The notes below the pieces were generated by a model. The model was not told where the DNA came from, made no database searches, and worked only from the letters and a program-made list of their open reading frames with translations. The translations under genes and the position numbers were made by a program. From Armatimonadota bacterium (GTDB lineage: Bacteria > Armatimonadota > SYMT01): a stretch of 12,061 nt of DNA. Shown piece by piece: positions 1 to 12,061 of the stretch. Numbering within the stretch: position 1 is the stretch's first letter; each line of letters starts with the position of its first letter. Where the stretch lies: contig JBKBRF010000084.1 in NCBI GenBank assembly GCA_046292385.1, positions 1 to 12,061 on the forward strand, read 5' to 3'.

Positions 1-107
1 TAGAGCGTGGGGGACACACCCGTTCCCATCCCGAACACGGCAGTTAAGCCCCACTGCGCCGAGAGTACTGCTCCTTATCAGGAGTGGGAGCGTAGGTCGC
101 CGCCAGA
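1..107 (+). rRNA. rrf: 5S rRNA (5' end about 10 nt outside the window)
   Basis: Contains 5S hallmarks ACCCGTTCCCATCCCGAACACGGCAGTTAAGC, GCGCCGAGAGTACT, GGGAG..TAGG and the 3' helix I arm TCGCCGCCAGA. Confidence 0.97.
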
Positions 108-114
108 ATACTTT

Positions 115-157
115 GCGAGCCCCCACCCTCACCCGGTGGGGGCTCGCCGTTGTTTCC
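115..157 (+). terminator. Intrinsic terminator after the rRNA operon
   Basis: Perfect 13-bp stem GCGAGCCCCCACC (115-127) / GGTGGGGGCTCGC (135-147) with a 7-nt loop, followed by an interrupted T-rich tail CGTTGTTT, 8 nt after the 5S gene. Confidence 0.8.
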
Positions 158-225
158 GAGTTCGAGCCGGATTTCGGCCCGGTCTTCGGCTGCTGAACGA
201 AGCCGTTCGAGTAGATCGGCGGTGA

Positions 226-738
226 TCAGGCGCCGCCCGCGGGACGGTCCTTCATGTACTGCACGGCGTAGGTCATGCCGTCGCGGAGTTCGTGGTGGGT
301 GATGCTCCCGCCCAGCAGCGACGACTGCATCATGCGGTTCAGGTGGCCGACTACTCCAGCGGTGCTGTTGCCGCTGTCGAGCTGGCGCCGGATCTCGTCG
401 TAGAGGGCCTGGCGCCGCTTCGCCGGAATCCCGTGGACCCGGGGCGAAATCCGCGCCATCACCTCGTCCACACTGGCCGCGTCCACTTCTCCGACATGCT
501 CGTCGATAAGCGTAAACGCGCGGGTTTGGTGGTAGTAGGAGATATTGATCTGGTCCGTGGAGCCCCCGGGGGTCTCATAGACCAGGGCGATGTTGGTGAC
601 GGGCTGGTCGCACCCGCTGTCCCACTGGTCGATCCGGCTCCGCAGGTTGCCGTACTCCACCTTCCCCGCGAAAGGGCCGATGCAGTCTTGCAGCCGGGAG
701 CAGAGCTCGCTCAGCTCGGGCGGGGCCTCACCTCGCAT
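226..738 (-). CDS. Hypothetical protein (~170 aa, no recognised family)
   Basis: ORF with globular, protein-like composition. GGAGA RBS (749-753) lies 10 nt before ATG 738; GTG 747 is only 1 nt from the RBS, so is a less likely start. It has its own sigma70-like promoter. Confidence 0.8.
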   Translation of the reverse strand: MRGEAPPELSELCSRLQDCIGPFAGKVEYGNLRSRIDQWDSGCDQPVTNIALVYETPGGSTDQINISYYHQTRAFTLIDEHVGEVDAASVDEVMARISPRVHGIPAKRRQALYDEIRRQLDSGNSTAGVVGHLNRMMQSSLLGGSITHHELRDGMTYAVQYMKDRPAGGA

Positions 739-763
739 CAAACGCACGTCTCCATTGGCACGA

Positions 764-793
764 AGTGTACTTCATCGCTGGAACGGGTGTCAA
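764..793 (-). promoter_or_regulatory. sigma70-type promoter of the 226-738 gene
   Basis: Minus strand TTGACA (793-788), 18-nt spacer, TACACT (769-764), ending about 10 nt upstream of the RBS. Confidence 0.65.
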
Positions 794-852
794 TCCAGGG
801 GGGTGCCCGCCCGCCTGGTGTAGGAGCAGCTTTTGCGCCGGTCGCAAGTCGT

Positions 853-882
853 TGGACGAGACTGGCTTCCGATTCGTATAAT
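853..882 (+). promoter_or_regulatory. Possible sigma70 promoter of the phosphatase-rsmG-kinase unit
   Basis: Perfect TATAAT at 877-882 in GC-rich DNA, with a weak -35 (TGGACG, 853-858) and an 18-nt spacer. Confidence 0.45.
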
Positions 883-910
883 GTCAACCGGCTCCAGGTC
901 TTCAAACTCC

Positions 911-2122
911 ATGCAGGAACCTTCCCCAGAAGCAGTGTCCAGTCCCTCCTCGCGCGAGATCCCGCAGCGTACCAGCATCCTACTGGTAGATGACCACCCG
1001 GGAACGCTCGAGACGCTGGTCGACATGTTCGAAGACGCGGGCTTTCACACCGCCACCGCTTCTACCACCTCGGAGGCTCTGGAGCGCGTTCAGGAGCAGT
1101 TCTTCAACGTGGCGCTGCTCGATATCTGGCTGCCCTCCCGGCGCGGAGCGGAGCCGGACATGCACGGGACCGCGTTGCTGGCGCAGATGCGGGAGCTGCG
1201 GCCGGAAACCAAGTGCATCATGGTCACGGGTGATGCCACCTTCGAAGCGGCCCGGCAGTCTCTGAACGAAGGCGCCTACGCCTACATCCAGAAGCCGTTC
1301 GAGCTGCGCGACGTCGAAGGCACCGTGCGCCGCGCGCTCAAGGAGCAGATGCTCGAGCAGGAGAATCGCAAGCTCCTGGCCGAGCTGCAGGACGTAGCGC
1401 GAACCCTCGCGGAGAGCTTCCAGAGCGAGGCCCCCAACGTGCCGGGGCTCCAGATAGCATTCCGGCTCGTCACCGAGTTCGAGGTGGCGCGCTTCGGCGG
1501 GGACTTCTTCGACTTCATCCCCCTGGGCCGGGACCGCCTGGGCGTGGTGATCGGCGACGTGAGCGGGAAGGGGCTCTCTGCCCACAAGTACGCCGCGATG
1601 GCGAAGTACATGCTGCGCGCCTACGCCAACGAGCATCCCTCTCCGGCTCAGGTGATCCGCAGGCTGAACGACGCGCTCTACCGGCACATGTCGGACGGCA
1701 TGTTCATCACGATGGCGTACGGGGTGCTCGATCTTCAGGATGGCAGCTTCACCTTTACCAACGCCGGGCACCCGCCGCCCGTGGTCTACCATCCGGAGAC
1801 CGCGCAACTCGAGGCGCTCAAGCCGACCGGCGGGATGGTCGGCGCGATCGAAGGGTGGGAGTTCGGGGAGGGCCGCGTCACGCTGCAGCCGGGCAGCGTG
1901 ATCGCTCTCGTCACGGACGGCGTTACCGAAGCGCGAATGGGCGACCGGATGCTTGAGAACGAAGGCGTCCACGAGGTCGTCCGGGAAAACGCCGCGAAGT
2001 CGGCCGAAGAGATCGTCGCCGCGATCAACGCCCGGGCGATGGAGTACGCCGGCGGCGTGCTGAAGGACGACGTCGCCATCGTGGTGCTCAAGAACGCTCC
2101 GAGCGCGCAGTCGGGCTCCTGA
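911..2122 (+). CDS. Response-regulator receiver + SpoIIE/PP2C-family phosphatase (RsbU/RsbY-like)
   Basis: REC motifs LLVDD, LLDIWLP (phosphoacceptor Asp), MVTG, YIQKP; coiled-coil linker; PP2C motifs GGDFFD, IGDVSGKG, NAGHPPP, TDGVTEA, DDVAIVVL. The start is uncertain (881 or 911); 911 was chosen because 881 overlaps the TATAAT. Confidence 0.93.
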   Translation: MQEPSPEAVSSPSSREIPQRTSILLVDDHPGTLETLVDMFEDAGFHTATASTTSEALERVQEQFFNVALLDIWLPSRRGAEPDMHGTALLAQMRELRPETKCIMVTGDATFEAARQSLNEGAYAYIQKPFELRDVEGTVRRALKEQMLEQENRKLLAELQDVARTLAESFQSEAPNVPGLQIAFRLVTEFEVARFGGDFFDFIPLGRDRLGVVIGDVSGKGLSAHKYAAMAKYMLRAYANEHPSPAQVIRRLNDALYRHMSDGMFITMAYGVLDLQDGSFTFTNAGHPPPVVYHPETAQLEALKPTGGMVGAIEGWEFGEGRVTLQPGSVIALVTDGVTEARMGDRMLENEGVHEVVRENAAKSAEEIVAAINARAMEYAGGVLKDDVAIVVLKNAPSAQSGS

Positions 2123-2925
2123 TGTCGGACGAGCCGGCCCTGCTCCCAGGCACGGAGCAGTGGGAGCGCTTCGCCGAGCAGGCGCGCCAGCTTCGGACCG
2201 ACCTCCAGCCGGAGCAAGTCGAGGGGCTGCGGATCTACCTGGAGCTCCTGGTGGAGTGGAACCGCCGCTTCAACCTGACCGCCATCCGGGATCCGGAGGA
2301 GATCCTCACCAAGCATTTCCTCGACTCCCTCTCCTGCGCGGCCGTGGTCGACTTCTCCCAGCGGCGGAGCCTCGTCGACGTAGGAACCGGCGCCGGCTTT
2401 CCGGGGATGGTGCTGAAGATCGTCTTTCCCCACCTGCAGGTCACGCTGCTCGACGCGGTGGAGAAGCGGCTGGCGTTTCTCGACCGGGTGGCCGAGGCGC
2501 TCTCGCTGCGCGACGTCCGGACCGTCCACAGCCGCGCCGAGGATGCCACCGGCACCTGGCGCGCGCCCCAGCGCCGGAGCGAGACGCCGCCCGGAGCGCG
2601 CGAGGTGCCGACCGGCGCGTTGCGAGAGCGGTTCGACGTGGCGACCGCCCGGGCCGTGGCGCGGCTCAACGTGCTGAGCGAGTGGCTGCTCCCGTTCGTT
2701 CGGGTCGGCGGCGTCGCGCTGGCGATGAAGGGCCCCGAAGTCGCGGAGGAGACCGCCGAGGCAGGGCGCGCGATACAACTGCTCGGAGGCGGTGCCGCTG
2801 CCGCCACCGAGCTAACCCTTCCGGGGTCCGACCTTCGCCGCAGCCTGGTGGCGATCCCCAAGGTCCGTCCCACCCCTCGGACCTATCCCCGCCGCGCCGG
2901 CTCGGCGCGAAAATCTCCGTTGTAG
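2122..2925 (+). CDS. rsmG: 16S rRNA m7G527 methyltransferase RsmG (GidB)
   Basis: EWNRRFNLTAI, KHFLDSL, SAM motif DVGTGAGFPG, LLDAVEKR, RAE, ARAVARL, MKG and C-terminal YPRRAG..KSPL. The start overlaps the upstream stop (TGATG). Confidence 0.97.
   Translation: MSDEPALLPGTEQWERFAEQARQLRTDLQPEQVEGLRIYLELLVEWNRRFNLTAIRDPEEILTKHFLDSLSCAAVVDFSQRRSLVDVGTGAGFPGMVLKIVFPHLQVTLLDAVEKRLAFLDRVAEALSLRDVRTVHSRAEDATGTWRAPQRRSETPPGAREVPTGALRERFDVATARAVARLNVLSEWLLPFVRVGGVALAMKGPEVAEETAEAGRAIQLLGGGAAAATELTLPGSDLRRSLVAIPKVRPTPRTYPRRAGSARKSPL
2548..2616. repeat. Intragenic palindromic insertion in rsmG
   Basis: Inverted repeat 2550-2564 / 2596-2610 (14 of 15 paired). Direct repeat ACCGGC at 2548 and 2611, 63 nt apart. 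Coincides with an extra ~19-21 aa loop. Confidence 0.6.
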
Positions 2926-2956
2926 TGTCCCGCCGGTGTTCTGCAGGAGGTTCTGA

Positions 2957-3760
2957 GTGCAGGAGTCTTCGATCGGTACTGACTCTGAGCCGCTCCCGGG
3001 CGAGTCGCCGGCGTTCGTCGAGGAGCACCGCGGCTACCTGCTGGCGCGGTGGCCGGGGACGGCCGGGAGCGGAGCGATCCTGCAGGCCGAGCTGGACCCG
3101 CGGCTCGCCGCCGGCGGCGCGGACCAGCTCGTGCTCGATCTCTCGGGCGCGGAGCAGTGGTCCGCTGCGGATGCGGAGGCGCTGACCGCGGCGATCCGGG
3201 ACGCGCAGCGCCGCGGGTGCGCCGTCTCGCTGGTGCGGTGTCCGGATCAACTCTACCGGCAGCTCCAGCTGTCCGGACTGGAGGGCGGCGTCCGGCACTG
3301 CGGCTCCCTCGGGGCCGCAACCGGTGGGCTCCTGGGGCAGGCTGCCAGCCTGCTGGATCTCTACGTCCGCAGTGCCGCCGACCAGCTCCCGCGCGTCCGC
3401 GCCGTCACCAGCGCGGTGCTTCTCGGCATCATCGGCGATGAGCGGGCGGCGGCGCAGCTCCAGCTCGCGATTGGGGAGGCGGTGACCAACGCGATCCTCC
3501 ACGGCTCGCCCGAGGGCCCCCGCAACCACGTCCGGATCTCGCTCCACGTGGAGCGCGGCGCGCTGGTGGTCGACGTGGCCGACCAGGGTCCCGGCTTCGA
3601 TCCCGACAGACTCCACGCCGCTTCGCCGGAGGAGCTCTCGGAGCACGGTTACGGAGTCGGCATCATGCGCGGCGTGATGGACCGGGTAGAGTTCTTCCGG
3701 GACGAGACCGGCATGCTGGTGCGGCTGACCAAGCTCGTTCCCACCGGGGCGGGCGGCTAG
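2957..3760 (+). CDS. Degenerate STAS domain fused to an RsbW/SpoIIAB-type Ser/Thr kinase (HATPase_c)
   Basis: AGGAGG RBS before GTG. STAS-like LVLDLSG...AIRDAQRRGCAVSLV...LQLSGL. Kinase boxes: N (LAIGEAVTNAILHG), G1 (VADQGPGFD) and G2 (EHGYGVGIMRGVMDRVEF). Confidence 0.88.
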   Translation: MQESSIGTDSEPLPGESPAFVEEHRGYLLARWPGTAGSGAILQAELDPRLAAGGADQLVLDLSGAEQWSAADAEALTAAIRDAQRRGCAVSLVRCPDQLYRQLQLSGLEGGVRHCGSLGAATGGLLGQAASLLDLYVRSAADQLPRVRAVTSAVLLGIIGDERAAAQLQLAIGEAVTNAILHGSPEGPRNHVRISLHVERGALVVDVADQGPGFDPDRLHAASPEELSEHGYGVGIMRGVMDRVEFFRDETGMLVRLTKLVPTGAGG

Positions 3761-4182
3761 AGTCCGGCGCTGCGGGCGAGCTCTTCGATCAGCTCGTCGG
3801 AGAGCTGCTGCTCGTACTGATCCCACCGCTCCCGCGACCAGATCTCCACGCGCGTGCCGGTGCCGACCACAATCACCTCGCGCTGGATGCCGGCGAACTC
3901 GCGCAGCACGCCCGGGAGCGAGAGGCGGCCCTGGCCGTCGAGCGTTACCGTGACGGCGGAGCCGATGAAGTAGCGCTGAAGGGTGAGCAGGCGCTGGTCG
4001 ACCAGCGTTTCCCCGCGCAGGCGGGCGGCCACAGCCTGCCACTCGGCCTCGGGCATCGCCCAGAGACAGCCGCTGGCGCCGCGGGTGACGGTAAAGGAGT
4101 TGCCGAGGGCAGGGACGAACTCGGCCGGCATCTTGAGCCGGCCTTTGTCGTCGACGTGGTAGGGAAAGCTGCCCTGGAACAC
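3757..4182 (-). CDS. mraZ: Transcriptional repressor MraZ
   Basis: 141 aa; MFQGSFPYHVDDKGRL start, two DxxGR AbrB-type repeats (DDKGRL, DGQGRL), and VGTGTRVEIWSRERW. Confidence 0.96.
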   Translation of the reverse strand: MFQGSFPYHVDDKGRLKMPAEFVPALGNSFTVTRGASGCLWAMPEAEWQAVAARLRGETLVDQRLLTLQRYFIGSAVTVTLDGQGRLSLPGVLREFAGIQREVIVVGTGTRVEIWSRERWDQYEQQLSDELIEELARSAGL

Positions 4183-4192
4183 GGCCGTCGCG

Positions 4193-4813
4193 CTACCCGA
4201 CCGCTACCAGCGCGTCCGCATCCCACTCCGGCCGCTCTTCCACGATCTCGGGGACGGGTACCACCGGCACCGTGCGCCCGACCTTGAGGCCGCGGCGGTC
4301 GTGCCGCAGCAGCGCGCGGACGCTCTTCTGCTCGTCGGTATCGGCGTGCGTAGCGGTGCAGCGGGCGCAGTAGGAGAGGTGCAGCGGCTCCCCCGTCTCG
4401 CCCAACTCCACGGTAGCGCGCGTGGCGAACGGGTCGGCCGCGCTGCAGATGCCGCACTGGGGCAGCTCGATCATCTCGCTCCCGGAATCGCTGCAGAGGC
4501 TGCGGATCAGGTGCACGGTCACGTCGCTCAGGTTCCGCTCCACCAGGGAAAAGCTGAACTGCGTCTTCAGCAGCCACTCTACCTTGCCGAAGAGAGCGCC
4601 GTCGTCGTAGCACTGCACGGCGTAGCTCATCAGCGGCCCGTGCGAGATCGGCACGACCTGCGCGAGATGGCCGACCATGTCGAACAACTCGCGGATCTGC
4701 TTCATCTCGCGCTTGTCCCGAGCTTCCGCCAGGAAGATGGCGCGACTTCCCTCCTGCGCGGGGAAGTAGAGCACACGTGAGACTTCTGCCTGTCGGGATC
4801 CGCCCCTTGCCAT
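4193..4813 (-). CDS. Hypothetical protein (206 aa) with putative Zn-binding CxxC-x25-CxxC motif
   Basis: AAAGGTGG RBS before ATG 4813; CGIC (4456-4445) and CARC (4369-4358); stop codon 10 nt before the mraZ start. Confidence 0.85.
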   Translation of the reverse strand: MARGGSRQAEVSRVLYFPAQEGSRAIFLAEARDKREMKQIRELFDMVGHLAQVVPISHGPLMSYAVQCYDDGALFGKVEWLLKTQFSFSLVERNLSDVTVHLIRSLCSDSGSEMIELPQCGICSAADPFATRATVELGETGEPLHLSYCARCTATHADTDEQKSVRALLRHDRRGLKVGRTVPVVPVPEIVEERPEWDADALVAVG

Positions 4814-4915
4814 CTCACACCACCTTTCCGACATCCGTCGGCGCACCCTGGGCCCACCAGCCACCGCGGGAACTCGGCCTTACGACCATTATCGGGTGGA
4901 ACTGGAGCAACTCTC

Positions 4916-4950
4916 CCACATTCTTCCACCACTGGACCACTTTTCACCAC
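4916..4950 (-). promoter_or_regulatory. Putative MraZ operator (phased GTGG boxes)
   Basis: Minus strand GTGGTGAAAAGTGGTCCAGTGGTGGAAGAATGTGG. CCAC on the + strand at 4916, 4926, 4937 and 4947 (spacing 10/11/10), directly downstream of the -10 box. Resembles known MraZ boxes (GTGG[A/T]G in Bacillus, TGGGN in E. coli, AAAGTG[G/T] in mycoplasmas). Confidence 0.8.
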
Positions 4951-4958
4951 TCGAGCGG

Positions 4959-4988
4959 ATTATACCTGCGCCTCATGGCAAGCGTCAA
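4959..4988 (-). promoter_or_regulatory. sigma70 promoter of the hypothetical-mraZ unit
   Basis: Minus strand TTGACG (4988-4983), 18-nt spacer, TATAAT (4964-4959). Confidence 0.82.
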
Positions 4989-4997
4989 CGGCGAAAG

Positions 4998-5204
4998 GGC
5001 GCCTGCCCTGCAGTAAACCGGGCAAGCAAACCAATGGAGGGAGCTCCACCGTGGTGCGTGGATGAGCACGGCAGGCGTCGGGGCCGACGTCTCTGTCGGA
5101 AGCTTCGTCGTGATTCCGGCCAGCTCCTGTTCCGACAAACAGGATTCCTGAGCGACCGAAGTGGCGATCGCCGGATCAGCGGCAACGCTCCGCCGGGGAT
5201 CGCC
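4998..5204. other. Structured intergenic segment (several hairpins), function unknown
   Basis: Stems 4998-5007/5070-5079, 5094-5101/5130-5137, 5125-5131/5138-5144, and 5163-5174/5193-5204 capped by AGCG-GCAA-CGCT. Confidence 0.35.
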
Positions 5205-5252
5205 GTATACTAACCCGATAGCTCGCAGAGCGGGTCGGAGAGGGGATAGGGA

Positions 5253-5939
5253 ATGCAGGGAACACTTCGAACGTGGGGGCTGGCCGGCCTGGCGGCCGCG
5301 GCGTGTGCGCTGGGGCCAGCGATTACCCCGGCAGAATCGGCCGGCAAGACGGCGCGGTTCAACGTCACCACCGTCCAGAAGGCAACCGGGGGCAACGTGA
5401 CGGTCACCAGCCAGGTGTGGATCACGCAGACCCAGGCGCGCATCGAGCTGAAGCACCCGCTCCAGGGAAACAGCACGTGGCTGGTGACCGGCGGCAATCT
5501 CTACCAGTTCAACCACCGGACCAAGCAGGGAATCCGCATACCGCTCCCCGACAAGATCAAGAAGAGTAAAGACAATTTCGACTTCCTCATCAGCCGCTTC
5601 GCCTTCGACGCCAGAGGCGTGCTGAAGAGTGGAAAGAAGCTCCGCACGGAGAATGCGGCCGGCTATCTCTGTGACGTAGTGAAGTCGAGTGAGACGAAGG
5701 GTGAGGCGAGCCGCTCCGTCATGGTGTGGGTGCCGCAGAAGATGCAGCCGAAGTTCCCGGTGAAGGCCGTCGTCGAGATGAAGGTGACCAAGCCGGGCGC
5801 CAACCTGAGCGAGTCGATCAGCGTCGCTCTCTCCAACATCAAGCTGAACGGCGCGATTCCGGCCTCCACTTTCACCCTTCCGAAGGGCTACAAGATCCAG
5901 GACGTGCCCGCGGGCGCGGGCGCGCCCGCCCGGAAGTAG
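5253..5939 (+). CDS. Secreted LolA-fold-like protein (DUF4412 / lipoprotein-carrier-like)
   Basis: Sec-type signal peptide ending AxA (AESA). Beta-rich pattern SQVWI..ARIE, LYQFN..KQG, TENAAGYLCDV, VMVWV, FPVK and NIKLN..IPASTFTLPKGY. GAGGGG/AGGG RBS and TATACT at 5206-5211. Confidence 0.75.
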   Translation: MQGTLRTWGLAGLAAAACALGPAITPAESAGKTARFNVTTVQKATGGNVTVTSQVWITQTQARIELKHPLQGNSTWLVTGGNLYQFNHRTKQGIRIPLPDKIKKSKDNFDFLISRFAFDARGVLKSGKKLRTENAAGYLCDVVKSSETKGEASRSVMVWVPQKMQPKFPVKAVVEMKVTKPGANLSESISVALSNIKLNGAIPASTFTLPKGYKIQDVPAGAGAPARK

Positions 5940-5961
5940 ACTTCCCGAGGAGCCGCCACCG

Positions 5962-6861
5962 ATGCCTGCTCGCCGCGTGGCGGTGCTGGGAAACCCCGCT
6001 TCCGGCCGGGGACGCGGCGAGCGCCTGCTAACGCAGGCGGAGCGGGCCCTGCAGGCCCTCGGCGCCGAGGTCCGGCTCCTCCGCACCGAGCGCTCCGGCC
6101 ATGCCCCCGAGCTGGCGGAGGCGGCCGCCCGGGAGGGGGTAGACGCTATCCTGGTAGTGGGCGGTGACGGTACGGTCCGGGACGCCGTCCAGGGCCTCCA
6201 CCAGGCCGCCGCCCTCTCCAGCATTCCACTGGCGATCCTGCCCGGCGGGACCGGCAACGACCTGGCCCGCTCCGTAGAGACGGCCCGCACCGTCGAGGCG
6301 GCGGCGAGGGCGGCGTTAGGCGAGCGGGAGCGGCGACTCGACGTCTGGTCGTGGGACGGTACCCTCTTCGTCAACGTCGCCGGCGTGGGGCTCGACGCGG
6401 CGGTCGCCGCGGAGGTGAACCGCTCCTTCCGCGCGATCGGCGGCACCCTGGCCTATATCGGCGCCGTGCTGCGCGTGCTCCCCGGCTTCAAGCCCCAGCA
6501 GATGAAGCTGACCTGGCCGGAGGGGGAGTGGGAGGGCCGAGTCTGGCTGGTCGCCTTCGGGAACGCGGAGTCCTACGGCGGCGGGATGCGCATCGCCCCC
6601 GGCGCCGCTCCGGACGACGGCTGCCTGGAGGTCGTGATCGTCCAGGACGTGCCGAAGTGGGAGCTGCTCTGGCAGTTCCCCCGGCTCTTCACCGGCGGAC
6701 ACGTCCGCCACCCCCGCGTGCTGCAGCTCCGCGTGTCGGAGATCGAGGTGCACGCCTCGCCACAGCCGGTCACCCTCGACGGAGAGCTGATCGGCCACAC
6801 CCCGGCCCGCATCCGCCGCCTGCCGGAGCAGCTCCGGCTCCTACTGCCGCCCGAGGAGTAA
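5962..6861 (+). CDS. Diacylglycerol/lipid kinase family protein (DagK/YegS/BmrU family)
   Basis: NPASG, GGDGT, PGGTGNDLAR, FVNVAGVGLDA, N..SYGGG, DDG.LEV and LDGE motifs; GAGGAG RBS. Confidence 0.93.
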   Translation: MPARRVAVLGNPASGRGRGERLLTQAERALQALGAEVRLLRTERSGHAPELAEAAAREGVDAILVVGGDGTVRDAVQGLHQAAALSSIPLAILPGGTGNDLARSVETARTVEAAARAALGERERRLDVWSWDGTLFVNVAGVGLDAAVAAEVNRSFRAIGGTLAYIGAVLRVLPGFKPQQMKLTWPEGEWEGRVWLVAFGNAESYGGGMRIAPGAAPDDGCLEVVIVQDVPKWELLWQFPRLFTGGHVRHPRVLQLRVSEIEVHASPQPVTLDGELIGHTPARIRRLPEQLRLLLPPEE

Positions 6862-6871
6862 ACCGAACGGT

Positions 6872-7088
6872 ACGCGAGGCTACGAAGGCGGAGGCGAGGT
6901 CACGAGGGACGCGGAGGACGCGAGGCAGTACCAGAGCCACGCGTGCCCGCGCGAGTAAACTCGGCGCTACTCAGAGCGGTAGCCCCGAAAGCTTTCGGGG
7001 CTACCGCAGCCGGTACACGGAGGGCCACGCCTGTTCCGTTCCGGTCCCCTTCGCGTCCTTCGTCCTCTTCGCGCCTTCGCGTTCGTTC
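6872..7088. repeat. Long imperfect inverted repeat built from ~9-nt units (CGAAG/CGAGG...CTTCG)
   Basis: Purine-rich left arm ~6872-6925 (ACGCGAGG, ACGAAGG, ACGAGGGACGCGGAGGACGCGAGG). Complementary right arm with CTTCG at 7049, 7058, 7067 and 7075. Lies between convergent genes. Confidence 0.6.
6976..7007. repeat. Perfect 32-bp palindrome, REP-like; may double as a bidirectional terminator
   Basis: GCGGTAGCCCCGAAAG|CTTTCGGGGCTACCGC, containing GTAG...CTAC ends. Confidence 0.75.
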
Positions 7089-7093
7089 GCGGC

Positions 7094-9070
7094 TTATTCC
7101 CCCCGGGCCACCTGCTGCTCGTGGAGAGAGCGCGCCCGGCGGAGGAAGCCGACGAACTGGTCGACGTTCGTGTTGAAGGTCGACTCCGCCAGCTTCTCGC
7201 CCTCCGGAGTGATCACCACGTAGAGCGGGAGGGTGGTCTGGCCGAACTTCTCGAGCTGGAGGTCGGCGTAGCGGCGCGACTCGTCGGTCTCCTTGTCGGT
7301 CCAGAGACGCACCGTCACGAACTTCTGGAACTCCTGGGAGACCTCCGGCAGCGGGAAGACGGTGTCTTCCATCACCCGGCAGTTGGTGCAGGTGACCCCG
7401 GTGAAGTCGATAAAGACCGGCTTTCCTTCCGCTTTCGCCTGCTGGAGCGCGGCGTCGTAGTTCTCCAGCCAGCGCACGCCGCCCTCCGCCACGTGCGACT
7501 CCTGTCCCGGATACTCCCGCGGCGGGAAGAAGCCGTTGATCTGGCCGAGCGGGACGCCGTTCATCGCCAGGAGGAAGAGGCTCCCGGCGACCAGCGTCGC
7601 CGCGCCGAAGGTCCGGCGGAACCAGCCGACCGGCGCATCATCGTCGTGCGGCAGCTTGATGAGGCCGAGCAGGTAGATCCCCGCGAACATGAAGATCGCG
7701 AACCAGATCGCCAGGAAGACCGGCCGGGTCAGGAAGCCGAGCTGCCAGACGAGGTCGGCGTTGGAGAGGAACTTGAGTGCCGCCGCCAGCTCCAGGAAGC
7801 CCATGTAGGCCTTCACGGTGACCATCCAGGCGCCGGCACGCGGCATCTTGGCGAGCCACTGCGGGAAGAGCGCCAGCAGGAAGAATGGGGAGGCGAACGC
7901 GGCGCTGAACGCCAGCATTCCCGGGACCGTCCACTGCAAGTTACTGGCGGAGGTGGCCAGCAGCGTCCCCACGAAGGCGAAGGTGCAGGTGAAGGAGGTC
8001 AGCGTGAAGGTGAGGCCCATCAGGAGCGGGCCCACCAGCCCGCCGCGCTGCGACCCGGCCTGGGCGCTCTGCAGCATCCAGGTGGGCAGCTGGATCTGGA
8101 AGCCGCCGAAGAGGTTCACCGCCATCACGATGAAGAGCAGGGCGAGCAGCAGATTGGTGACCGGGTGCGTGGCGAACCGGGAGATGCTGCCGGCGCCGAA
8201 GAGCAGGCTCATCACCAGTCCGAGCGCGGTGAAGGTGCCGATGATGCCGAGGCAGTAGGCGATCGCGCTCCGCAGGCCGGACCCGGGGCTCACTTCCTGC
8301 TGCTTGGTGAAGAAGCTCACCGTGATCGGAATCATCGGGAAGACACACGGCGTGAGCAGCGCCAGCAGCCCCATCGTGAAGGCGAGCCACAGGAAGGCGA
8401 GGAAGCCCTGTTTCTGGGCCGCGGCGATCTGGCCGCTCACGTCCTCCGCACCGCCCGGGCCGGGGGTGCCGCCTCCCGTGGAGCCGGCTGCCGGGGGCGC
8501 TTCCGCGCCCTCAGGGGCCTGATAACCCTCGGGCTGCGCCGGCGGCTGAACCGCGGCCGCCGCAAGCTCCGGCCGGGCGGCACCGGCTTCGACCGTGAAG
8601 CTGACCGGGACGGTATCGGTGGTTGGCCGCAGGCAGACGCCGTCGGTCTGGCAGACCTGGTAGCGCACCTTCACGGTGGCCTGCTGCTCGCCCGGAGCGG
8701 AGGCGGTCACCTTGACCGGCAGGCCAAACGACACGGCGCCCTCGAAGTACTCCACCTCGATCTTGAAGCCGGCATCCATGTGCCGCTCCGGCGCCGGCTG
8801 GACTGCATCTCCCGCGGCCTCCAGCGCCTGGCCTGCGTCCAGGGTGATCGTCGTCGGCACCGGCCCGAGCTCCGCGTCGACTTTGTTCACGGAGTAGATG
8901 TGCCAGGGAGCTTCGACCGTCGCCTCCAGCACCACTTGCGCGGTTTCGCCGGGGCGCACGGTAGGCGGCTCCAGCCGCGCCGACCACTTCACCGGGTCGG
9001 GCGGAGCCGCGCTCGCCGGCAGCGCGACGAACAGAAGCAGGAACCAGAGGAGGAGACGACCGGCCTTCAT
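7094..9070 (-). CDS. dsbD: Thiol:disulfide interchange protein DsbD
   Basis: Signal peptide; Ig-like alpha domain (WHIYS, YQVCQTDGVC); transmembrane domain with LTPCVFPMIP and SFTCT; C-terminal thioredoxin domain IDFTGVTCTNC. Alternative GTG start at 9079. Confidence 0.93.
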   Translation of the reverse strand: MKAGRLLLWFLLLFVALPASAAPPDPVKWSARLEPPTVRPGETAQVVLEATVEAPWHIYSVNKVDAELGPVPTTITLDAGQALEAAGDAVQPAPERHMDAGFKIEVEYFEGAVSFGLPVKVTASAPGEQQATVKVRYQVCQTDGVCLRPTTDTVPVSFTVEAGAARPELAAAAVQPPAQPEGYQAPEGAEAPPAAGSTGGGTPGPGGAEDVSGQIAAAQKQGFLAFLWLAFTMGLLALLTPCVFPMIPITVSFFTKQQEVSPGSGLRSAIAYCLGIIGTFTALGLVMSLLFGAGSISRFATHPVTNLLLALLFIVMAVNLFGGFQIQLPTWMLQSAQAGSQRGGLVGPLLMGLTFTLTSFTCTFAFVGTLLATSASNLQWTVPGMLAFSAAFASPFFLLALFPQWLAKMPRAGAWMVTVKAYMGFLELAAALKFLSNADLVWQLGFLTRPVFLAIWFAIFMFAGIYLLGLIKLPHDDDAPVGWFRRTFGAATLVAGSLFLLAMNGVPLGQINGFFPPREYPGQESHVAEGGVRWLENYDAALQQAKAEGKPVFIDFTGVTCTNCRVMEDTVFPLPEVSQEFQKFVTVRLWTDKETDESRRYADLQLEKFGQTTLPLYVVITPEGEKLAESTFNTNVDQFVGFLRRARSLHEQQVARGE

Positions 9071-9246
9071 GGGACGCACACCCTTTACGATTACTCCGCA
9101 CGCGCCGGCCGGATCTCGGGAGATTCCGGCCCGAACGCGATGCTACCCGTTTAGTTCTACGCATCCCGGAGCGAAAATGTCATTGCGCCTCCGGGGCGCG
9201 TGCGGAGCAGACTCGTTGTGGCGGCGGCTGTGACCGGTCAATCGGC

Positions 9247-9645
9247 TCAGGGGCGGCGCGTGGTACGGGTGGTCGACCGCGCCGGCGCCGCGGCGGGAGC
9301 GGCGGGAGCGCTCGCCTTCTCCCGGGCCGGGGGAGGCGGAAAGAGGCTGGTGAGGCCGCAAGTATCCAGGATCTTCCGGACCGGCAGCGTGGGGTTCTGC
9401 ATGTAGATCGTCCCGCCGCCCTGGCGGGCCGCCTTGAGCGCTTCGAGCAGAACACCCACCCCCTTGCTGTCGATGAAGTTGAGCCGGCTGGTGTCGAGCA
9501 CCACGTTCGGCCCATGCTCCTCGATGTGGCGAAGCAGGATTCCCCGGGTCCGTTCGGAGGTGTCGAGATCGAGCGTGCCGTCGAGGGCCAGCAGCAATTG
9601 CCCGTCTTCGCGACGGATATAACTCTCCAGATGGGCTTCGGTCAT
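9247..9645 (-). CDS. STAS anti-sigma-factor antagonist (RsbV/SpoIIAA family)
   Basis: LDGTLDL, VVLDTSRLNFIDSKGVGVL with an intact phosphoacceptor Ser, GGTIYM.NP..VRKILD..GL, and a ~30-aa Pro/Ala/Thr/Arg tail. Confidence 0.92.
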   Translation of the reverse strand: MTEAHLESYIRREDGQLLLALDGTLDLDTSERTRGILLRHIEEHGPNVVLDTSRLNFIDSKGVGVLLEALKAARQGGGTIYMQNPTLPVRKILDTCGLTSLFPPPPAREKASAPAAPAAAPARSTTRTTRRP

Positions 9646-9773
9646 AGCTCAAGCAACCGTTCTGGCCGGGACCGGCCGGAAGAAATCACCCCAGCGGGGT
9701 TAAAGGGGAGGAAGGAGCCAGCGAGCTACCGACCGCAGGTTCCCCGGGCAGGCAGTGGCATCCTCTGCCCGCT

Positions 9774-9799
9774 TTACCCGCGGCACAGACCGCTGAAAC
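9774..9799 (-). promoter_or_regulatory. Putative sigmaB/SigF-type promoter upstream of the STAS gene
   Basis: Minus strand GTTTCA (9799-9794), 14-nt spacer, GGGTAA (9779-9774), close to the sigmaB consensus GTTTww-N12-15-GGGWAW. Confidence 0.55.
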
Positions 9800-9845
9800 A
9801 TCCCGGCTCCAACCGCTTGGCCGCTAGCCAGTCAGGAAACCTCTC

Positions 9846-11735
9846 GTGACCGATCGAGCGACCCGATTTACCCCCCACACTGAATCTTCCCCCGCCTCGC
9901 TGGAGGCGTACCTCCACCGGATGAGAGAGACGGCGCCGGTCCGGACGGCGACGAAGCCGGAGTGGATCGCGCGGCGGACCGCGGTCCGCGAGCGGCTGCT
10001 CCGCGCCCTGGGCCTGGATCCGCTGCCGGACCGCCTGCCGGGAGAGCTCCACACCTCCGGCACGCTGGAGCGAGAGGGCTACCGGGTGCACCGCGTCTAC
10101 TGGCAGACGTGGCCGAAGGTCTGGGCGAGCGGCTGGCTCTACGCTCCGGCGGAGACGGCCTCACCCGGCCCCGCCGTGCTCTACCCGCTCTCCGCAGGGG
10201 GACTCGACGCGGAGGCGCAGGCACGGCTCGCCGCGCTCGCCCTCCTCGGCTACACCGCGCTGGCGATCGATCCGCTGGAGGTCCGGGAGCTCGCGGTCGG
10301 CCTGACGCGGGCCACCGTCTCCACCTACACCGGAATGCGCGCCTTCGACTTGCTTGCGGCCCTGCCGGAGGTCGATCGGGAGAAGATCGGGCTGGCGGCC
10401 CCGGCCGGCGCCGCCGAGGAAGCGCGCTACCTGCTCGCGGCGGAGGAGCGGCTCCGCGCGGCGGTCATCCCGGAGGCGGCGCTCGTTCCGTTCCACGCGC
10501 TTCCCGAGCCGATCCCCGTCCCGGGCGTGCTGCCGTTCACCGATCCGGTGGAGCTGTGCGCGCTCGCCTCACCGCGGGCGCTCCTCATCCTGGGGACGGC
10601 GGATTCGGCCGGCCGCGACACGGAGGAGGAGCGGAACCGGCTGCTCTCGATCTTCCGGCTGTGGGGCCAGCCGGACCGCCTGGCTTACCGGCAGCTCAGC
10701 TCCGCGGACGCACCCGAGGTGATCGCCGCCTGGCTGGAGCGGGAGCTCCGCCGGGACCGCAGCGCGGAGCCGCGGCCGCTGGGGGAGACCCCGATCGAGA
10801 GCGCGGAGACGCTCGCGGAGCTGGAAGGCGCGCCGGAAGGCGACCGCGGCGTGGAGGGGATCCTGGACTGGCACCGGCGGCGCGTGGTGGCGCAGCCCCC
10901 GCAGCTCGAAGGAAAGCCGGCGCGCCGCTCCTACCAGGAGCGGACCCGGGCGGAGCTGCGCGCGCTGCTCGGCGAGCCGTGCCGGGTGACCCTCGACCCT
11001 CGATCCGACGGCGAGATCGAGGGCGCCGCGCGGCTGACCCTGCGGTCGGAGCGAGACGTCCGCGTGCCCGTGCTCTGGCGCCATGAAGGCGGCGAGGGGC
11101 TTCGCCCGGTAGTCGTAGTCGCGCATCCGGAGGGAAAGGAGGCGGCGCTGCGCCAGCCCGCCGCCGCCGGGCTGGCCGCGGCGGGGTGGTCGCTGCTGGC
11201 ACCGGACCTGCGGCTCTGCGGGGAGCTTTCCCGCGAGTGGAGAGACGGGCCGGCTCTCTGGGGCCGGCCGGCAGTGGGGATGGCGGTCGACGACCTCCTG
11301 GCTTGCGTCGACTGGCTGCATGGCCACCCGGAGGTCGATCCCGCTTCGATCGTCCTCCTCGGCTGCGAAGGACACGGGGTGGTCACGCTGCTGGCCGGGG
11401 GACTGGACGAGCGCGTCGGCGCAGTGGTGGCGGATTGCTGCGGCACCACCTACCGGGACGGCGGCGAGGGACTGCCGGTCATCCCGAACCTCCTGCGCGT
11501 CGCCGACCTGCCGCAGATCGCCTCCACCGTCTCTCCGCGCCCGCTCTGGCTCTACCGGGTCCCGGCCGAGCGGGTCGGCTTCTCCAGCCGCCGCTACTAC
11601 GACTGGACCCGGCGCACGCACCAGTCGATCGGCGAAGAGGAGTCGCTCCAGCTCGATACCGGAGAGCTGCCGGAGGCCTCCCGCCTCGACGAATGGCTGC
11701 GCCGCCGCCTCCGCCGCGCCCGCCGCGGTGGCTAG
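9846..11735 (+). CDS. Tandem alpha/beta-hydrolase-fold protein (acetylxylan-esterase-like) with degenerate catalytic motifs
   Basis: REGYRVHRVYWQT, SGWLYAP..PGPAVL, RAFDLLAALPEVDREKIG and ALASPRALLI in domain 1; LLAPDLRLCGE, LWGRP..GM.VDDL, VDPASIVLLG, LDERV and VSPRPLWL in domain 2. AGGA RBS before GTG. Confidence 0.85.
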   Translation: MTDRATRFTPHTESSPASLEAYLHRMRETAPVRTATKPEWIARRTAVRERLLRALGLDPLPDRLPGELHTSGTLEREGYRVHRVYWQTWPKVWASGWLYAPAETASPGPAVLYPLSAGGLDAEAQARLAALALLGYTALAIDPLEVRELAVGLTRATVSTYTGMRAFDLLAALPEVDREKIGLAAPAGAAEEARYLLAAEERLRAAVIPEAALVPFHALPEPIPVPGVLPFTDPVELCALASPRALLILGTADSAGRDTEEERNRLLSIFRLWGQPDRLAYRQLSSADAPEVIAAWLERELRRDRSAEPRPLGETPIESAETLAELEGAPEGDRGVEGILDWHRRRVVAQPPQLEGKPARRSYQERTRAELRALLGEPCRVTLDPRSDGEIEGAARLTLRSERDVRVPVLWRHEGGEGLRPVVVVAHPEGKEAALRQPAAAGLAAAGWSLLAPDLRLCGELSREWRDGPALWGRPAVGMAVDDLLACVDWLHGHPEVDPASIVLLGCEGHGVVTLLAGGLDERVGAVVADCCGTTYRDGGEGLPVIPNLLRVADLPQIASTVSPRPLWLYRVPAERVGFSSRRYYDWTRRTHQSIGEEESLQLDTGELPEASRLDEWLRRRLRRARRGG

Positions 11736-11901
11736 TGGCGGGTCCAGCCACCTCTGTTCTGCTGAAGTGGGGGAGTAACTGAGTGGAGCTCGGGAAGTAC
11801 TCACCCCTTTGCGAAAGCGGGCAGTGGCGCGAGAGGGAGGCCGCGCAAGGATACTGTTGGCGAAATCGGGAAGCTTCTCCGGGGCCCCGCTGGCGCGGGG
11901 C

Positions 11902-12011
11902 GCGAAAGCAAGCATTCGCACTCCACAGGCTAGCCCGGAAGAGATTCCCTCTCGTCGAAAGGGAGCCGGCCTCGGTGCAGTCTGTGGAGTGCGGTGGCTT
12001 GTGTCACACGC
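11902..12011. repeat. Inverted doublet of GGAGTGCG-type REP-like palindromes
   Basis: CGCACTCCACAGGCT (11917-11931) pairs with AGTCTGTGGAGTGCG (11979-11993), 15 bp with one G-T pair. Each end carries its own small hairpin around CAAGC/GCTTG. Confidence 0.6.
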
Positions 12012-12061
12012 TGTAAAGTTACGCCGCTGGTGGCGCAGGAAGGTTTTGCCGCATCGCTCGC

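Follow-up and report, generated by a model that had tools for sequence, protein, structure and literature searches.

MraZ is among the most conserved bacterial regulators, and its signal and purpose are unclear. In the part of the Mycoplasma genitalium study drawn on here (PMC12957436), the MraZ box is given as GTG(G/T) with six spacer nucleotides (nt), and the operator holds four boxes; in the corresponding part of a Bacillus subtilis study (bioRxiv 10.1101/2022.02.09.479790), the MraZ site has 4-nt spacers between its three GTGG[A/T]G motifs, and either of the substitutions R15A and R86A abolishes binding. The DNA-contact residues of MraZ named in these parts of the two sources are K13, R15, and R86 (PMC12957436; bioRxiv 10.1101/2022.02.09.479790). 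The same part of the B. subtilis study describes mild phenotypes for mraZ deletion, and a single well-established target, the dcw operon (division and cell-wall genes) to which mraZ itself belongs (bioRxiv 10.1101/2022.02.09.479790). Here we analyze 12,061 nt of DNA from an Armatimonadota bacterium (positions 1 to 12,061 of the forward strand of contig JBKBRF010000084.1, assembly GCA_046292385.1), and this whole stretch is called the window. In it, a promoter with four phased GTGG boxes stands before a gene encoding a protein of 206 amino acids (aa), here called X, with mraZ second. We consider it probable that X and mraZ form a self-contained operon with one strong sigma-70 promoter and an MraZ operator over its start, and that X is the regulated output of this operon.

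Promoter, operator, and the linkage of X to mraZ

The promoter of X matches 11 of 12 sigma-70 positions and is the sole sigma-70-like site within positions 3500-5300 (shuffled sequences gave a mean of 0.2). Box 1 begins 8 nt past the -10 hexamer, which places the GTGG array over the expected transcription start. The third box can be positioned in two ways, 3 nt apart, owing to an overlapping GTGG at 4932-4929. We counted GTGG arrays on both strands of the whole genome (7.04 Mb, 68.9% G+C) as a background. This site is the only four-box array with 6-7 nt gaps, against an expectation of 0.14. Three-box arrays were not enriched: nine were found against 11.7 expected, so that three boxes alone prove nothing in this genome and the significance of the array rests on the number of four together with its position. 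Three other three-box sites (contigs C16, C28, and C73) likewise equal the chance expectation in number. The original prediction, made from the letters of the window, had described a promoter, four phased boxes, a 206-aa reading frame, and mraZ 10 nt later, and all of these read as it claimed.

The mraZ gene linked to X belongs to PF02381 in Pfam (E 2.7e-31, 107.8 bits against a cut-off of 23, in two stretches), and on the NCBIfam model TIGR00242 it scores 97.6 bits, just under the equivalog cut-off of 98.35. Its product has two DXXXR motifs, DDKGR (residues 11-15) and DGQGR (82-86), and keeps the DNA-contact residues K13, R15, and R86. Across 28 X-linked MraZ copies from the phylum, no substitution occurs at D11, R15, D82, or R86, and conservation of K13 is 90% or higher. 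Downstream of mraZ in the window there is neither rsmH nor any other dcw gene; the neighboring gene on that side (2957-3760, plus strand) is convergent and encodes a STAS/HATPase_c_2 protein.

The pairing of X with mraZ extends well beyond this genome. X was present in 52 of 401 sampled Armatimonadota genomes, a count that was the same with a single protein and with a profile as the query. At 29 of the 30 best X loci, mraZ lies directly downstream on the same strand, and the thirtieth ends at a contig edge 136 nt after X. Twenty further loci comprise nine with mraZ directly downstream, ten without it, and one cut by a contig end; locus L048 and six genomes assigned by coordinates added seven linked cases. 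In total, the pair was found in 45 of the 52 X-positive genomes, across at least ten families, which bears out the expectation that homologs of X would be linked to mraZ. Linkage could not be called in three genomes (G245, G099, and G327), and X stands alone in four (G001, G017, G031, and G050). The gap between the genes is 50 nt or less at 20 of 29 loci. Most genomes have one copy of the pair, and the grouping of its families follows taxonomy. Its flanking genes are ordinary housekeeping genes that differ between families, so that the conserved part is the pair and its operator only; three 10-kb loci and the window showed no genes of mobile elements.

The operator is conserved along with the pair. 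A promoter of the form TTGAC-N17-20-TAnMMT lies upstream of X at 29 of the 30 loci, and at 28 of them at least two exact GTGG boxes, spaced by 10/11 nt, begin 2-33 nt past the -10 hexamer; at least three boxes occur at 10 of the 30. The two-box criterion was satisfied by 33 of 3000 shuffled upstream regions and by none of 79 other upstream windows from the same loci. When degenerate boxes are counted, the box-aligned consensus consists of four units in a 10-nt phase: G(G/T)GGTAG, GTGGTAG, GTGGTAG, and nGGGTA. In five whole genomes, the two-box pattern GTGGTANNNNGTGGTA occurs four times, three of them directly upstream of X. The proposed conservation of X upstream of mraZ with the boxes thus holds at nearly all of the 30 best loci.

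Family f3, in which the module has been split (L078, L092, L094, L097, and L098), provides the exception to the linkage. In G001 and G031, mraZ is absent from the ~2 kb around the best X copy, and the lone X at these loci (L078 on G001:C68 and L092 on G031:C434) lies behind TTGACA-N17-TATAAT and three phased GTGG boxes; the best X copy of G017 is cut by a contig end. Conversely, divergent extra copies of X at seven loci have neither boxes nor mraZ. The lone X of f3 keeps its boxes and the boxless extra copies lack mraZ, and the operator therefore appears to travel with X. Thus X looks like a regulated output rather than a passenger, and we regard the f3 exception as the strongest argument for this.

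Features of the module are collected in Table 1. In an alignment of four family-f1 loci, the TTGAC of the -35 hexamer and the -10 hexamer are invariant, and the leader segment ACCGAC...TGTCGGAA.G is almost invariant in all four, the rest of the leader being variable; the boxes of the window's family are of the GTGGGA type in this alignment. Leaders in other families are shorter (~54-75 nt, versus ~135 nt here). In one rhizosphere RNA library, two exact contigs (4732-4833 and 4804-4878) cover the start of X and 65 nt of the leader; short partial pieces elsewhere in the stretch fit poorly. These contigs are compatible with a transcription start upstream of 4878, as weak and strandless evidence for which DNA carry-over is a possible source.

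Table 1. Features of the X-mraZ module and their positions in the window
Feature	Position	Strand	Remarks
-35 hexamer TTGACG	4988-4983	minus	Read from the sequence; sigma-70-like site scan
-10 hexamer TATAAT	4964-4959	minus	18-nt spacer from -35; sigma-70-like site scan
Operator, four GTGG boxes	4950-4947, 4940-4937, 4929-4926, 4919-4916	minus	Phased by 10/11/10 nt
5' leader	4915-4814	minus	Contains a hairpin conserved within the family
Leader hairpin CCGAC-GGAT-GTCGG	4841-4828	minus	Followed directly by ribosome-binding site AAAGG (4827-4823)
Gene X	4813-4193	minus	206 aa; ATG 4813 preceded by GGAAAGG; stop TAG 4195-4193
mraZ linked to X	4182-3757	minus	141 aa; GTG start, 10 nt past the X stop

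The X family and its predicted structure

In the public annotation, X starts at residue 14 and has 193 aa, leaving the region 4775-4813 of the window at issue. The ATG at 4813 fits the homologs better as the start, and has a ribosome-binding site that is conserved in the family. A word-indexed protein search returned 54 homologs, nearly all of ~206 aa, at identities down to ~50%; those that carry names are all "hypothetical", and one is labeled Armatimonadetes. A profile search of 1.84 billion representatives gave just 85 clusters at E ≤ 0.001. Ten of these clusters were looked up; two carry names, and both are Armatimonadota. Within the 401-genome sample, X is present in all genomes of families f3, f6, f8, and f19 and in 17 of 28 genomes of f22, and it was found in no genome of large families such as f5, f7, f10, f13, and f29. 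In a separate comparison of the single X protein with genome contigs, four loci were recovered, namely three close relatives and one short, weak match.

Four cysteines (C120, C123, C149, and C152) are invariant in all 38 aligned X sequences, at identities down to 26%, in the context CxIC...DPFP...YCxxC; the distant relatives, at 25-40% identity, keep all four. X itself matches no Pfam, NCBIfam, or PADLOC family above cut-off. None of the 38 members reaches cut-off against Pfam either, the best match being NifQ (E 0.011, in six members), and the X profile has no match below E 0.29 among PDB sequences. Against the ESM Atlas, scores were ≤ 0.82, and the structure rows had template modeling (TM) scores below 0.4. 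The protein is near-neutral to acidic overall, with a tail that is basic in most families and acidic in that of the window. Two metagenomic relatives, P0074 (300 aa) and P0075 (445 aa), carry extensions, for which gene-call artifacts are possible. The N-terminal stretch of P0074 weakly matches a Crp-type helix-turn-helix (E 0.022, below cut-off), the 245-aa C-terminal part of P0075 has no family, and neither long relative contains an MraZ domain. We conclude from these comparisons that X is a real gene of a new protein family restricted to Armatimonadota.

X was modeled with AlphaFold2 from an alignment (predicted local distance difference test, pLDDT, 85.6; predicted TM score 0.78), and its C-terminal 81 residues were also modeled alone (pLDDT 84.4). 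In the model, residues ~10-110 form a beta-beta-alpha-beta-beta-alpha-beta-alpha domain that is ferredoxin/ACT-like, followed by a zinc ribbon, a helix (161-170), and a disordered tail. Both models put C120/C123 and C149/C152 on a pair of beta-hairpin/helix knuckles. We infer zinc binding from the two conserved CxxC knuckles, which are placed to share one site. The Zn-ribbon assignment made in the original prediction is consistent with this, given a conserved gene and four cysteines without exception in the alignment.

Structural comparison placed the N-terminal domain in a fold class and no further. Neither the whole model nor the C-terminal domain had a Foldseek match in the PDB at E ≤ 0.001. 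With VIA-align, residues 19-120 superpose on the beta-alpha-beta-beta-alpha-beta fold of ACT/ferredoxin-like domains: the MgtC C-terminal domain scored Z 8.8 (root-mean-square deviation 2.2, 81 residues aligned), ribosomal protein S6 Z 8.7, and the ACT domains of GTP pyrophosphokinase/RelA Z 8.1-8.2, values that are common for this fold and in the range reached by unrelated models. As to a possible ACT domain at residues ~19-110, the fold class agrees at Z 8.1-8.8, the Atlas structure rows stay below a TM score of 0.4, and no sequence match to the ACT clan was found. The C-terminal part weakly resembles ribosomal and RING-type zinc knuckles (VIA-align, Z ≤ 4.5). The combination of a ferredoxin/ACT-like domain with a zinc ribbon corresponds to no described architecture in the searches made. 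In summary, X is predicted to be a soluble protein that combines a ferredoxin/ACT-like domain and a zinc ribbon of four cysteines; as modeled, its fold class is clear, yet no family or function follows from the fold.

An extra mraZ apart from the dcw cluster

MraZ domains were found in 372 of the 401 genomes. X-positive genomes mostly have at least four MraZ domain matches (at least two genes) and X-negative genomes mostly two. In all eight X-positive genomes examined, which belong to family f19, a second mraZ lies directly upstream of rsmH; in all 20 X-negative genomes examined, picked from the best-scoring MraZ matches, the single mraZ does so. No rsmH was found beside X at any of the 30 loci. 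By these arrangements, X-mraZ constitutes a two-gene module of its own, built on an additional copy of mraZ and lying apart from the dcw cluster. The original prediction of an MraZ operon stands in part: the linked MraZ keeps its three contact residues, and the locus is not a dcw operon with an inserted gene.

The genome of the window goes further. Its rsmH is on contig C12 (region ~38300-39893) and is preceded by a ferredoxin gene; between the two lies a terminator-like hairpin, and a box array is absent there. In all six genomes of the family (this one, G035, G005, G074, G021, and G048), rsmH lies away from every MraZ match, although in G021 it sits 238 nt from the contig start, so that loss of mraZ there is uncertain. 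The dcw-linked mraZ seems, from these gene orders, to have been lost in the family. The X-linked copy is the only standard 141-aa MraZ of the genome and its best Pfam match. Two other, divergent MraZ-like genes with DXXXR motifs are encoded (C22:17979-18821, 280 aa; C10:22342-22737, 131 aa), neither of which adjoins rsmH; the C22 protein has a C-terminal extension of ~140 aa with no function assigned. Such long forms (frames of ~290-330 aa) recur in the family and are the only other MraZ-like gene of the relatives. We found nothing tying X to cell division, and the dcw cluster of this genome is without mraZ and boxes. An rRNA methyltransferase gene does lie near the linked mraZ; it is rsmG (GidB, a 16S rRNA methyltransferase; 2122-2925, plus strand) rather than rsmH, and it is on the opposite strand.

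A tree built from 56 MraZ sequences puts all 28 X-linked copies on one side of a branch with a support of 87 in the Shimodaira-Hasegawa-like approximate likelihood ratio test (SH-aLRT), separating them from the rsmH-linked copies that these genomes also have. A 70-row tree, from which the very long L069 row was left out, gave the same split at SH-aLRT 85. The X-linked MraZ is therefore likely to be a paralogous subfamily, with moderate support for the deep branches. Canonical mraZ-rsmH promoters of the phylum (L039-L046) have the form TTGACA-N17-TAnAnT followed by GGGGTAGCAAGTGGTG-type boxes, the same type as at X.

Other features of the window are described here for completeness. At positions 1-108 (plus strand) lies a 5S rRNA gene (Rfam RF00001, 72.8 bits) that is truncated by the window start and of which the 3' part remains; the start of the contig is the end of an rRNA operon. 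Genes of the partner-switching type surround the module: a response-regulator/PP2C (SpoIIE) phosphatase gene at 833-2122 (plus), whose stop codon shares base 2122 with rsmG; the gene convergent on mraZ, which encodes a fused STAS and HATPase_c_2 anti-sigma-type kinase; and a gene for a single STAS protein at 9247-9645 (minus). Among 22 listed public runs, 20 hold at least part of the stretch; these are mostly soil, root, and hot-spring metagenomes and, with three of the runs aligned to it, are a weak guide to habitat.

Interpretation and comparison with known systems

From the sequence, we infer binding of MraZ to the boxes, repression, and co-transcription of the two genes. In the operon that we propose, one promoter would drive X and then mraZ; the linked MraZ would bind the GTGG boxes cooperatively over the transcription start and thereby shut off both genes, a negative autoregulation in which X is the cargo of the circuit. 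In this genome, MraZ would serve X and not the division genes, because the dcw cluster of the family is without mraZ and boxes.

Several observations weigh against this proposal. The genomes of family f3 have, besides the canonical mraZ-rsmH, a solo 141-aa mraZ elsewhere with its own TTGACA...TATAAT promoter and no boxes, suggesting that autoregulation is not universal; in the 70-row tree, these solo copies fall, weakly, on the rsmH-linked side, and a single rsmH-linked row, on a long branch, is placed among the X-linked ones. At nine of 29 loci, six of them in family f6, X and mraZ are separated by 78-574 nt, and the f6 gaps (L015, L016, L018, L020, L022, and L031; 107-574 nt) contain terminator- or repeat-like inverted repeats; in such wide-gap loci, mraZ may have its own promoter. 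Ten copies of X do not adjoin mraZ, and seven of these are without boxes. No contig of the one RNA library, with its coverage of 4732-4878, bridges the X/mraZ junction. Finally, the shared box type makes cross-regulation possible, and MraZ occupancy is ambiguous where both copies exist.

Compatible with the proposed operon is a further role for X, which we put forward tentatively: X may be a direct partner of MraZ (a co-repressor, an anti-repressor, or a signal sensor) that binds the MraZ ring via its zinc ribbon or ACT-like domain and tunes operator occupancy. The linkage is tight and old (45 of 52 genomes, at least ten families), and the short or zero gaps between the genes suggest coupled translation. 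X also holds the position that rsmH has beside the canonical mraZ, a pair in which RsmH is thought to counteract MraZ. The N-terminal domain belongs to a fold class of small-molecule-binding regulatory domains, though its scores are common for the fold, and P0074 carries X behind the weak, below-cut-off match to a helix-turn-helix (E 0.022). However, no X-MraZ fusion was present among the 85 clusters, in a search of proteins of every length, and gene neighborhood alone is weak evidence of binding. Family f3, moreover, parts X from mraZ and has the boxes on X only, which fits a target and its regulator better than an obligate complex.

A more specific form of this idea strikes us as doubtful. 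Here X would be a zinc or ligand sensor that decides whether the MraZ ring opens onto the four-box operator, and the pair would be an autonomous sensory circuit, formed by duplication of a division regulator, that replaced the dcw-linked copy in this family. If it were true, X would be the first known protein effector of MraZ, in a defined single-target system.

We think it unlikely that the boxes at X are read mainly by another MraZ, whether dcw-linked or, in this genome, a divergent paralog, with the adjacent mraZ as a passenger. The like boxes at the canonical promoters (GGGGTAGCAAGTGGTG), the f3 loci that keep boxes on X with no adjoining mraZ, and the two further MraZ-like proteins with DXXXR motifs on C22 and C10 would all agree with such an arrangement. 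Nevertheless, the adjacent copy is the one standard MraZ of the genome and keeps every contact residue, and a passenger gene would be hard to reconcile with the linkage seen in 45 of 52 genomes.

A toxin-antitoxin-like, addiction, or defense module, in which MraZ is the antitoxin and X a toxin encoded first, is very improbable. The comparison is prompted by Pfam, which labels PF02381 "putative antitoxin-like", by the AbrB/MazE antitoxin-like fold of MraZ, and by the layout of two genes autorepressed by the DNA-binding member, a swapped-hairpin protein as in AbrB/MazE modules; MraZ overproduction is toxic in E. coli. Unlike those modules, the pair shows neither mobility nor multiplicity, being mostly single-copy, grouped like taxonomy, and set among housekeeping flanks that vary by family, with no mobile-element genes in the three 10-kb loci or the window. 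There is no PADLOC family for X or MraZ, X has no toxin-like fold by Foldseek or VIA-align, and four genomes have kept X without mraZ, a state that would be lethal were X a toxin. That the boxes and reading frame are chance features of a G+C-rich intergenic region, as the chance-level frequency of three-box arrays might suggest, is refuted by the uniqueness of the four-box array in the genome, the 54 full-length homologs of X, the invariant cysteines in its relatives, and the promoter and boxes conserved at 28 of 30 loci.

Here, a copy of MraZ that arose by duplication and retains its DNA-reading surface has become detached from the division genes and has long been kept, together with one new protein and an unusually clean operator, across at least ten families of one phylum. 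If the operon is as we propose, this genome, with one operator, one regulator, and one cargo, would offer a natural minimal system for MraZ control, and X is a possible lead to what MraZ does. A practical corollary is that an "mraZ" annotation is not always a marker of a dcw cluster.

The closest described systems are the MraZ operators of M. genitalium and B. subtilis. As far as the parts of those reports drawn on here describe them, they share with the window direct GTG(G/T) repeats that are spaced one DNA turn apart, at or after the -10 hexamer and over the start; they are read by K13, R15, and R86, residues that the window's MraZ keeps, and their operon is autorepressed. The Pmra promoter of E. 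coli likewise has an MraZ operator, at the mra/dcw promoter. In contrast to these mra/dcw operators, the first gene here is the unrelated 206-aa X and mraZ is second, rsmH, ftsL, and the other dcw genes are missing downstream, the dcw cluster lies elsewhere, and two genomes have the operator in front of a lone X. The canonical mraZ-rsmH (mraW) pair, the norm in the phylum, also consists of mraZ and one conserved partner gene behind boxes; in the module described here, however, the partner is upstream, is not a methyltransferase, and belongs to no known family, and the window's family has rsmH without mraZ. Within the literature searched on MraZ paralogs, MraZ operators, and Armatimonadota, no gene between operator and mraZ and no second MraZ operon is described. 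The operator and the regulator are therefore of known kinds; what is new, as far as that literature goes, is (i) a gene order in which a new gene comes first and dcw genes are lacking, (ii) a duplicated MraZ circuit that has outlived the dcw copy in one family, and (iii) the X family itself.

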